Shown here: one piece after another, positions 22,313 to 24,248 of the stretch
How the letters are laid out: the number at the start of each line of letters is the position of its first letter
How positions within the stretch are numbered: the stretch's first letter is position 1
Origin: Escherichia phage WPEC2
Length of the DNA stretch: 64,000 nucleotides
Direction: 5' to 3' (one strand)
Sequence record: PV691511.1
Made by a program: the position numbers and the translations under genes
Notes under the pieces: generated by a model
The model's database searches: none
Told to the model about the DNA's origin: nothing
What the model saw: only the letters and a program-made list of their open reading frames with translations

Positions 22313-23200
22313 TCAGAACGGAATATCATCGTCGAAGTCCATTGGAGGTTCTTCTTGATTACTTGGAGTTGGTTCTGGTTGTGGTTCAGGTTTCTTAACT
22401 TCTTTCTTCTCTTCTTTCTTAGGCTGTTCTGCGGAACCACGAATGGCAGCAGCAACTTTATCAGACAGAGCTAGAACTTTACGAGCAGAGTCAATCAGAT
22501 CTTCTACAGATACAGTCTTAATGGTATGGTCTTTACAAGCATTGAGAATAGCGTGACCAACAGATGCCCCAAGATCATAATCATTAATATCAACACCACG
22601 AGATTCAGCAATTTCCGATTTCAGCGTGACAGTTGCAGATTGAACAACCCCAGCGATATCGAAAGCATCGCCTTTAACACCATTACGAATCAGTTCCAGT
22701 GCACCATTTACTGCGTGACCAGTTTCCAGACCTACAGTATCACGTTTTTTATAAGACTGCTTAGGAGCAGTATCGTTGGAACCTTTATTGCCAGAAGATT
22801 TGTTAGACTTCTGAACACCATCGGTAGACAATACTGTAATACGAGATTTTTTAGTATTGTAGTAAGTTTTACCGCCTTTATTATCAACGCGATCAATATC
22901 AATACTTACTTCTACACCTTTTTCAATAGTGATCCAGTTATCACCTTCTTTGACTTGCAGGTTTTCATAACCTTCTTTCAGTTCAATATCACCAAGAGAA
23001 ATCCAAACACCTTTCTCATCTGGTTTAGCACCTTTCTCTTTCAGAACAAGAGAAGCTCGGTGAGTTGAAACAATCGTTTTTCCTTCCCAATGAAAAGTTT
23101 TAGGTTCAGCGAATTTATCCAGTTTAACGTAGTCTACGATACCAGTTGCATAAGTTACGGTTTTGCCTTTACGATCAGTTTCAGTATTAATTACGGACAT
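22313..23200 (-). CDS. ssb: single-stranded DNA-binding protein with EcoSSB-like acidic C-terminal tip
   Basis: 295 aa ending ...PPMDFDDDIPF (compare E. coli SSB ...PPMDFDDDIPF); Gly/Lys-rich linker; ATG with GGAGA SD. Confidence 0.7.
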   Translation of the reverse strand: MSVINTETDRKGKTVTYATGIVDYVKLDKFAEPKTFHWEGKTIVSTHRASLVLKEKGAKPDEKGVWISLGDIELKEGYENLQVKEGDNWITIEKGVEVSIDIDRVDNKGGKTYYNTKKSRITVLSTDGVQKSNKSSGNKGSNDTAPKQSYKKRDTVGLETGHAVNGALELIRNGVKGDAFDIAGVVQSATVTLKSEIAESRGVDINDYDLGASVGHAILNACKDHTIKTVSVEDLIDSARKVLALSDKVAAAIRGSAEQPKKEEKKEVKKPEPQPEPTPSNQEEPPMDFDDDIPF

Positions 23201-23216
23201 TATTATCTCCTCTACA

Positions 23217-23609
23217 TTACATTAATTTTGCACAGAAAGAACGGAGTCTTTCCATATCATCTTGCTCTAACAGGTATTTACCTTTACCTATCCCAACTCC
23301 AATTTCACCATTAGGAAAATGAACTATTTGCACTGGAAAACCTCCGAGTTTAATTGTGGCAGCTTTGCCTTCTTCGTCTATAACGTTTCGGATTGTATCT
23401 TGCAGTGAAATGAATTCTTTGTTTGTAACAGTGGTTTCAATTATTTCGGATGTTTCAACACGAGCAGTTAGCTTCTTGTCGCCACCTTGAATAACCAAAA
23501 TTTGAAAATAAAAAGAGTTGTCAAGACCTACAACATTTTTCTCAACTAGTGTCAAACTGGTATAGTTTCCATAAACAGTTTCAACAGCTATCTTAGAACG
23601 TTCAGTCAT
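23217..23609 (-). CDS. hypothetical protein
   Basis: 130-aa ORF co-oriented with replication genes; ATG start. Confidence 0.55.
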   Translation of the reverse strand: MTERSKIAVETVYGNYTSLTLVEKNVVGLDNSFYFQILVIQGGDKKLTARVETSEIIETTVTNKEFISLQDTIRNVIDEEGKAATIKLGGFPVQIVHFPNGEIGVGIGKGKYLLEQDDMERLRSFCAKLM

Positions 23610-23617
23610 TGAATGCT

Positions 23618-23647
23618 ATCCTATCATAAAATGTTTAATATTGTCAA
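23618..23647 (-). promoter_or_regulatory. candidate sigma70-like promoter (weak -10)
   Basis: Minus-strand TTGACA (23642-23647), 18-nt spacer, TAGGAT; upstream of the 23609 start. Confidence 0.35.
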
Positions 23648-23654
23648 GCTTTAA

Positions 23655-24248
23655 TTACCAAGGAATATCATCTTCTTCCGATCTGGTATCTACTTGAGGT
23701 GGACGCGGAACCTTCACTTCTTTAACAAAACGTAGATATGGGAAACGTGTGGCAATTTTAATAACATGTTTGGCATCTTCTCTAACGTCTTTGTGCAAGA
23801 AGCAGATCCCTGTTTCCAAGGTTGTTTCAAAATCTTTAGAATAATAACAATCCTTCCCATCAAATGCAGCCTGGCAGATGGACAGATCGAACTCATTTAG
23901 AAAGGTTGTCATTACGCTTGGTTCCATAATCATAAGGTTGCAAAGCTGACCATCACGTTCAAACTCAAAAACGTGTTTAAGACCAGTAACACCTTCATAA
24001 TTGTCAGAAGCCTCTTTGTTTCCTAGTTTACGAATATTGGTTCCCATTAAAGCAGATGCAATTAATCCTTGTATTTGTTCTTCAGTCCGATGTGCAGGAA
24101 GGGATGTATAGAAATCCAGATCACGTCCAGCAATATCAAGAATACGCCAATCACGAACAGCACCGCCAGCCAAGACAGAATTAGGATCAGCGATCTTTAA
24201 TACGGTAAGAATTTCTTTGGCAATATTGATTTGTTTTGATTTAGTCAT
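23655..24248 (-). CDS. minimal Pol-beta-type nucleotidyltransferase (CCA-adding-enzyme-like head) with acidic-aromatic C-terminal tip
   Basis: 197 aa; LAGGAVRDWRILDIAGRDLDFYT matches GGAVRD...D.D head motif of CCA/poly(A) nucleotidyltransferases; ends ...SEEDDIPW. Confidence 0.55.
   Translation of the reverse strand: MTKSKQINIAKEILTVLKIADPNSVLAGGAVRDWRILDIAGRDLDFYTSLPAHRTEEQIQGLIASALMGTNIRKLGNKEASDNYEGVTGLKHVFEFERDGQLCNLMIMEPSVMTTFLNEFDLSICQAAFDGKDCYYSKDFETTLETGICFLHKDVREDAKHVIKIATRFPYLRFVKEVKVPRPPQVDTRSEEDDIPW

Follow-up and report, generated by a model that had tools for sequence, protein, structure and literature searches.

We analyzed 64,000 nucleotides of Escherichia phage WPEC2 (sequence record PV691511.1; hereafter the window) and found that two neighboring genes of its replication block encode proteins with similar acidic, aromatic-ended C-terminal tips. 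[quoted passage not shown] We propose that both gene products carry, on their disordered tails, short linear motifs for docking of the kind found at the SSB C terminus. The SSB-like protein would plug phage single-stranded DNA (ssDNA) into the host SSB interactome, and the NTase tail would tether a probable counter-defense enzyme to a pocket of the SSB-tip-binding type near ssDNA ends. Judging from the sequences, we put the probability of this reading at roughly 45%, slightly short of even odds. In bacterial genome maintenance, the C-terminal tip of SSB serves as the central docking peptide, and phage SSB-like proteins are now known as triggers of several defense systems. The source phage is a Phapecoctavirus (Stephanstirmvirinae; ~150-kb E. 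coli myoviruses).

The C terminus of the 295-residue protein reads ...QEEPPMDFDDDIPF. Its last 11 residues, PPMDFDDDIPF, are exactly those at the end of E. coli SSB, where a preliminary description of this DNA had stated an exact match for the DFDDDIPF tip; the match was returned by a profile search (PDB chains 1eqq and 7f2n), and a local tblastn match to the E. coli SSB tail spans window positions 22393-22316. The NTase ends ...DTRSEEDDIPW, and translation of the open reading frame (ORF) at 23655-24248 on the minus strand confirmed the EEDDIPW end reported earlier. This end follows the SSB C-terminal pattern of an acidic run, a penultimate proline and a terminal aromatic residue on a flexible, conserved tail, and 12 of 12 close homologues keep it, as do Tr1 and P0136. 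Both tails are predicted to be disordered, and both tips are kept among homologues although the linkers before them diverge. Among the 380 ORFs of at least 40 residues in the window, only these two combine an aromatic end with at least three acidic residues in the last eight positions, and only these two end in D-I-P-aromatic, both in the window and among the 1453 ORFs of at least 30 residues in the near-identical WPEC6 genome. The two genes had been described as adjacent. They do lie in the same operon-like block, but a 130-residue ORF (23217-23609) stands between them, so that they are near neighbors rather than strictly adjacent.

Other acidic-aromatic ends in WPEC6 are those of the small subunit of ribonucleotide reductase and of two small ORFs. 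The reductase subunit, encoded outside the window (5642-6727 of the WPEC6 locus L012), is the other large protein of the genome with such an end (...LSDDEELDF, its last residues being DDEELDF), which looks like the acidic-aromatic tail by which R2 classically docks on R1. Directly upstream of the primase-helicase gene, a 92-residue ORF at 31328-31606 (minus strand) has an acidic tail too, ...EAEYMMETNEPF, which is weaker and has a Pro-Phe end.

We regard the 295-residue protein as the SSB-like protein of the phage and infer that it binds ssDNA. The label SSB that it had received earlier needs correction: bacterial SSBs are matched in the tail only. The Pfam scan gave no SSB family match, the NCBIfam model NF006533 (PRK09010) scored 22.8 bits against a cut-off of 260 and covered residues 254-295 only, and a 53-sequence profile of the family matched E. 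coli SSB chains in the PDB solely via the last ~22 residues. Membership in the canonical bacterial SSBs was rejected because the similarity is confined to the tail, and the protein belongs to a phage-specific family with an OB-like domain and a helical domain. In its AlphaFold model (predicted local distance difference test score, pLDDT, 80.8), a disordered segment joins a beta domain to a four-helix domain, after which come a disordered linker and the tip. PHROGs places the protein in phrog_4477 (unknown function), and the viral structural relatives of the model are all uncharacterized. A tblastn search of the genome, which is a weak test, found no further canonical SSB.

Within this family, BLASTP marks the protein as a clear homologue of Bas52_0087 (QXV84166.1), with 34% identity over the OB-like domain (residues 13-124, E 8e-13) and 33% identity over the helical domain and tail (residues 147-295, E 9e-16); the four-helix domain is the best-conserved part. 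Bas52_0087 was identified genetically as the phage factor required to trigger the DRT10 reverse-transcriptase defense, and it was described as SSB-like, with an FDDDIPF tip and a possible link to ExoI (SbcB) (bioRxiv 10.64898/2026.04.29.721553). Host-type tips on phage SSB-like proteins are already known, both in general and for the Bas52_0087 family. The tip sequence is present in essentially all of the 120 family clusters listed, down to ~30% identity, and is C-terminal in 103 of them; it survives synonymous codon changes (GAC/GAT, CCG/CCA/CCT and TTC/TTT) across homologues that are 31-83% identical. Since the last 11 residues copy E. coli SSB, phage ssDNA coated by this protein should present the host hub peptide, which would then be offered to host SSB partners such as ExoI, RecQ, PriA and chi.

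The second tip is conserved among homologues of the NTase, a point on which the preliminary description had made its case depend. Nine of the ten homologues of 58-97% identity end in DDIPW, and the tenth, P0003, ends in DDSFPW. The tails vary as ...RSEEDDIPW, ...NDFEDDIPW, ...SNDDIPW, ...EDFQDDIPW, ...LEDYKDDIPW and ...FEDTDDDIPW, and in some lineages the mimicry reaches eight residues, as in P0004 (NDFEDDIPW, compared with MDFDDDIPF of SSB). Farther away, the NTase of Citrobacter phage Tr1 (37% identity) ends ...KPKDIPW, and that of P0136, from another Stephanstirmvirinae-like lineage, ends ...NFPDDIPW. The family core has no such tip (0 of 105 members). Sporadic tip-like ends occur elsewhere in the family (P0239, ...NDIPW; P0280, ...DDGIPF; P0229, ...KPIPF), in a list biased by the tip columns that the search profile included. 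The genomic context of the P0136 and P0239 enzymes was sought in viral contigs, where nothing was found, and P0280 has no phage relative. In the structure model of the window protein, residues 178-197 have pLDDT values below 50.

The tip is thus kept while its linker diverges, is absent from the family core and is sporadic elsewhere, which is the pattern of an add-on targeting module; at the level of sequence, it has the marks of a short linear motif that was added on and is under selection in one clade. The NTase of the Phapecoctavirus clade would have gained a flexible linker of ~20 residues ending in [DE]-D-I-P-W. This tail may act as a tether that places the terminal tryptophan and the free carboxylate into a pocket of the SSB-tip-binding type, carried either by a host SSB partner or by a defense or repair protein working at ssDNA. 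Tethering would concentrate the NTase where ssDNA ends and SSB partners gather, allowing it to nucleotidylate a substrate there. Our literature search on DDIPW and on SSB C-terminal mimics in phages found nothing relevant, and we found no paper that describes a Gad2-family NTase with a conserved SSB-tip look-alike.

The enzyme itself is probably a catalytically active NTase. It has a Pol-beta fold, and a search of 1.84 billion representative proteins gave 1054 relatives at E <= 0.001; among the matches listed, most are 175-230 residues long. G28, G29, D43 and D45 are invariant in a 128-sequence family alignment, A30, R32, D33 and W34 are at least 90% conserved, and position 95 is acidic in 88 of the 128 members. 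The window protein has all of the conserved residues (G28, G29, D43, D45 and E95), which argues for catalytic competence. The assignment to Gad2 is based on precomputed PF26128 ('Gad2') matches on relatives and on profile comparison. PF26128 is matched by P0009 (60% identical to the window protein), by many other family members and, faintly, by the NTase of the metagenomic locus L016. In hhalign, the NTase family profile, with the window protein as its first row, aligned with Gad2 of phage SPbetaL7 at probabilities of 94.6% (E 7e-8) and 91.8% (E 7e-7); the comparison sequence came from the supplement of Yirmiya et al., and its stored copy ends ~3 residues short. The alignment joins residues 11-152 of the window NTase to Gad2 residues 16-139 over ~110-120 columns, including the GG...DxD and FD.S/T.C motifs. 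As the homology concerns the Gad2 core and a C-terminal part of ~260 residues is missing, the window protein is a short Gad2-family NTase. The anti-Gabija function of the Gad2 gene (Gabija anti-defense 2) has been validated, and an NTase domain is predicted in its product. A 2026 review still describes its mechanism as unknown, and anti-Gabija activity was demonstrated for Gad2 and one Brevibacillus homologue only. On this family membership, the window NTase is a probable counter-defense enzyme.

GenBank records name the NTase differently, as a 'putative tRNA nucleotidyl transferase / poly(A) polymerase', under which it would serve the phage tRNAs and the tail would be incidental. The motif A region (GGxVRD...DxD) agrees with the class II CCA-adding and poly(A) polymerase enzymes, and the phage encodes 10 tRNAs. 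However, profile matches in the PDB limit this similarity to ~40 residues of motif A, the scores for PF01743 (13.8 bits, cut-off 23) and TIGR02692 (12.6 against 438.8) fall short, and the neck, body and tail domains that bind tRNA are missing from this 197-residue protein. Moreover, the tRNA cluster lies ~70 kb from the NTase gene, with no tRNA in the window, and the family is that of Gad2. The identity of a tRNA CCA-adding enzyme was rejected on scores, size and gene context, and we give the GenBank label hardly any credence. The protein labeled nucleotidyltransferase-like earlier belongs to the Gad2 anti-defense family rather than to the tRNA CCA-adding enzymes.

Our proposal of tethered docking could be taken one step further, with SSB-tip mimicry as the targeting strategy of Gad2-family counter-defense NTases. 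DDIPW would then bring the enzyme to the SSB-tip pocket of a host nuclease or helicase, or of a defense complex acting at ssDNA ends (ExoI or RecQ types, or OLD-nuclease/UvrD-helicase systems such as Gabija), where it would nucleotidylate a protein or a DNA 3' end. We consider this extension unlikely, and a literature link between Gabija and SSB was sought and none was found. If true, it would offer a first grip on the mechanism by which Gad2-type enzymes disarm immunity, and it would be the first instance in which an enzyme, rather than an SSB, uses the bacterial SSB hub peptide. The preliminary description had also thought of competition. In that case, the NTase tail would act as a decoy that occupies SSB-tip pockets, for example those of ExoI, RecQ or RecJ, or those of a sensor of phage SSB, and blocking them would protect phage ssDNA or blunt SSB-triggered immunity. 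Several E. coli defenses indeed sense phage SSB-like proteins or need ExoI, and a mimic of up to eight residues suits a competitor. Nevertheless, the tip-bearing clade conserves its catalytic residues in full, for which a pure decoy would have no use, and a monomeric tail would have to compete with multivalent SSB; we hold a decoy to be clearly improbable.

The position of the two genes, directly downstream of the PolA and primase-helicase genes in the replication block, is also consistent with wiring of the T7 type. T7 gp5 has basic patches to which the gp2.5 and gp4 tails bind. By analogy, both tails in WPEC2 would dock on the T7-like DNA polymerase or the primase-helicase of the phage, and the NTase would be a replisome accessory factor. 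PolA is a homologue of T7 gp5 (29% identity over 291 residues, E 6e-26), and in T7 the front basic patch of the polymerase serves as the anchor for the SSB tail (PMC12339929). However, the patch residues K587, K589, R590 and R591 are not conserved: the first two fall into a 12-residue gap, and the others are replaced by K and Q, respectively. This result comes from a pairwise alignment of T7 gp5 with the PolA of phage tuntematon, which is free of the intein and 99.7-100% identical to the window exteins; at 29% identity, the alignment is a weak test. It gives no support to the front basic patch as the receptor of the tips. Additionally, the primase-helicase has no acidic tail (...PTDSNY), the exact 11-residue host copy in the SSB-like tail points to host partners, and Gad2 relatives are accessory genes rather than replisome parts. 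We therefore doubt that the tails serve the phage replisome.

Several observations weigh against the docking proposal. First, the tips can be lost. The NTases of phi92 (Justusliebigvirus, ...NNEEFKI) and of the Klebsiella phages 05F01 (...LDSFEKF), FKP3 (...AWDDDKI) and phi1_175008 (...AWDDL) have tails that are acidic and aromatic but not tip-like. In 17 of the 120 clusters of the SSB-like family, the tip is buried by an extension of 14-17 residues, '[AS]P[ILV]GLQY...' (APIGLQYGRNFLHCF). As these relatives are viable, a free SSB tip is dispensable in some backgrounds. Second, the preliminary description had spoken of the same docking peptide. The layout is similar, but the enzyme invariably ends in W and the SSB-like protein invariably in F; sameness is thus an assumption, the two tips may not be interchangeable, and in the literature we found no SSB-tip pocket that accepts W. 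Third, the homology to Gad2 is remote and limited to N-terminal residues 16-139 of Gad2, and the window NTase has no precomputed PF26128 match and gave none in the local Pfam scan, where the model is seemingly absent. Fourth, the structure model of the NTase, built with 11 sequences, is of low confidence (pLDDT 60.6). Finally, the NTase gene closes with the same four codons and stop codon, GAT ATT CCT TGG TAA, in the window (23655-23669, minus strand), in phiWec186 (L006 ~4592-4606) and in Tr1 (L004 ~4583-4597), in genes that are only 37-59% identical at the protein level. Instead of selection on the peptide, the cause of this identity could be codon bias, recombination or a constraint at the DNA level.

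From this last observation, and from the relatives that thrive without the tip, it could be argued that the NTase tip has no function at the protein level and arose by chance or hitch-hiking, through a DNA-level constraint or recombination, for example. We think this very improbable. By a rough residue-frequency estimate, which was not computed, a protein would end in [DE][DE]IP[FW] with a chance of ~1e-6; the acidic residues upstream change in codon and identity yet remain acidic (EEDD, DEDD, DDDD, QDD and NDD), and tip-like ends recur in unrelated branches of the NTase family.

The extension that buries the SSB tip has a traceable origin. In Mt1B1_P17, Tr1 and three metagenomic loci, it stems from the insertion of a free-standing HNH homing-endonuclease gene at the exact end of the IPF codons, by which the SSB-like gene lost its stop codon and ~34 nucleotides of spacer to the insert. 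A group I intron or an intein behind the 'APIGLQY...' extension was rejected on these grounds. In phi92, the extension is kept as a scar, and the HNH gene is gone (L003 ~5926-5973). The HNH proteins share the N-terminal motif CFKCG..KPL..FYKH..DG...CK.C; full-length members add a C-terminal HHCDYDKPL...WLCP.HH..WH, which the 115-residue ORF of L017 lacks. The window phage has no such insertion, its equivalent site being 22315/22316. The conserved tip-coding DNA is probably the homing site of these genes. Regarding the two tips as one coupled system, all four combinations of a free or masked SSB tip with a present or absent NTase tip occur in viable relatives, and we rejected obligatory co-variation. 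The tip-less NTases and the HNH-buried SSB tips are nearly ready-made natural controls. Table 1 lists the coordinates of the genes, domains and motifs.

Table 1. Genes, domains and motifs of the two tip-bearing proteins and their surroundings; positions refer to the window unless a locus is named.
Feature	Position	Strand	Remarks
SSB-like gene, 295 aa	22313..23200	-	ORF; phrog_4477, E 2e-97; AlphaFold pLDDT 80.8; Bas52_0087 homologue, 33-34% identity in both domains
N-terminal beta domain, residues 1-125	22826..23200	-	OB-fold-like; presumed ssDNA-binding module
Four-helix domain, residues 156-253	22442..22735	-	family-specific; helices 156-172, 179-201, 208-223 and 232-253; pLDDT ~90
Disordered K/E/P-rich linker, residues 254-284	22349..22441	-	pLDDT 41-67; sequence differs between homologues
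SSB tip PPMDFDDDIPF, residues 285-295	22316..22348	-	same as E. coli SSB C terminus; stop codon 22313-22315
130-aa protein gene	23217..23609	-	phrog_16560
Gad2-family NTase gene, 197 aa, C-terminal SSB-tip mimic	23655..24248	-	
NTase active-site motif LAGGAVRDW...DLDFY, residues 26-47	24108..24173	-	D43 and D45 invariant; third carboxylate E95 downstream
NTase linker, Pro-rich, variable, residues 176-190	23679..23723	-	predicted disordered; homologues vary in its length and sequence
NTase tip EEDDIPW, residues 191-197	23658..23678	-	SSB-tip look-alike; stop codon 23655-23657
HNH genes after the SSB tip	L001 6283-6800 (Mt1B1_P17); L004 6007-6501 (Tr1); L015 4171-4713; L016 3968-4396; L017 3914-4261		

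Over window positions 22000-25000, identity is 100% with the Escherichia phages WPEC1, WPEC4 and WPEC6 and 97-98% with ~60 further Phapecoctavirus genomes. The replication block lies on the minus strand and converges on the tail genes, with both tip genes at its end. It runs from the primase-helicase gene through a methyltransferase gene, the T7-like PolA gene and three small ORFs to the NTase gene, the 130-residue ORF and the SSB-like gene, and the order PolA, NTase, ~130-residue gene and SSB-like gene is kept throughout the Stephanstirmvirinae. The 130-residue protein had no Pfam, NCBIfam or PDB matches. Its gene lies directly upstream of the SSB-like gene in every lineage examined (phi92, Tr1, 05F01, phiWec186, FKP3, L016 and L017), even with another gene in the NTase slot, and its product is likely a partner of the SSB-like protein. 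The NTase slot is occupied by a SIR2-domain protein in one metagenomic relative (L017 1770-2582) and by an HNH-like gene in another (L015 2172-2798). Such varying content fits and suggests an accessory or counter-defense position.

Two further features of the block were noted. The PolA gene (24877-28209) holds a 245-residue intein (25729-26463, minus strand; CVPMDAQ...ITITGN, then C) with a LAGLIDADG-like motif (FLEGFLIADGYW), whereas the 865-residue PolA of phage tuntematon has no intein and is otherwise 99.7-100% identical. Four consecutive ORFs at 31606-34750 (minus strand), near the DNA methyltransferase gene, match in position and size tuntematon genes annotated as glycosyltransferases and might point to modification of DNA or of surface glycans.

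A conserved SSB-tip look-alike on a Gad2-family enzyme would be a testable clue to how Gad2-type enzymes are targeted and what they act on, and the finding could show whether phages aim enzymes, and not only SSBs, via the host hub peptide. Among known systems, Gad2 itself shares with the window NTase a homologous NTase core and the status of a phage accessory gene. However, it has 400 residues and a large C-terminal region, in place of which the 197-residue window protein has its DDIPW tail, and Gad2 shows no obvious SSB-like tip, as judged on a sequence ~3 residues short of the full end. The class II CCA-adding and poly(A) enzymes (PF01743) have in common with the NTase the Pol-beta fold and an N-terminal helix with GGxVRD...DxD, but the NTase is half their size, has neither motifs B-E nor the tRNA-binding domains and stays below every curated threshold. 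T7 also has two replication-module proteins with acidic, aromatic-ended tails, and the window phage has a T7-like PolA and primase-helicase. In T7, however, the second tail is carried by the helicase (gp4) and not by an NTase, and in the window phage the SSB-like tail copies the host peptide.

Bas52_0087 and the 295-residue protein both end in DDDIPF. In contrast to the window protein, Bas52_0087 has 408 residues, being ~110 residues longer in the middle, and a second OB fold is predicted for it (bioRxiv 10.64898/2026.04.29.721553); it belongs to a Vequintavirus, in which no Gad2-like NTase is annotated beside it. The closest comparison is with E. coli SSB. The 295-residue protein shares its last 11 residues, likewise placed after a disordered linker, but has a body without sequence similarity to bacterial SSB and an additional four-helix domain. 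The tail of the NTase resembles the SSB end (...MDFDDDIPF) in its acidic run, its I-P and its C-terminal aromatic residue. Unlike SSB, it ends in W instead of F, and its carrier is an enzyme rather than an ssDNA binder.

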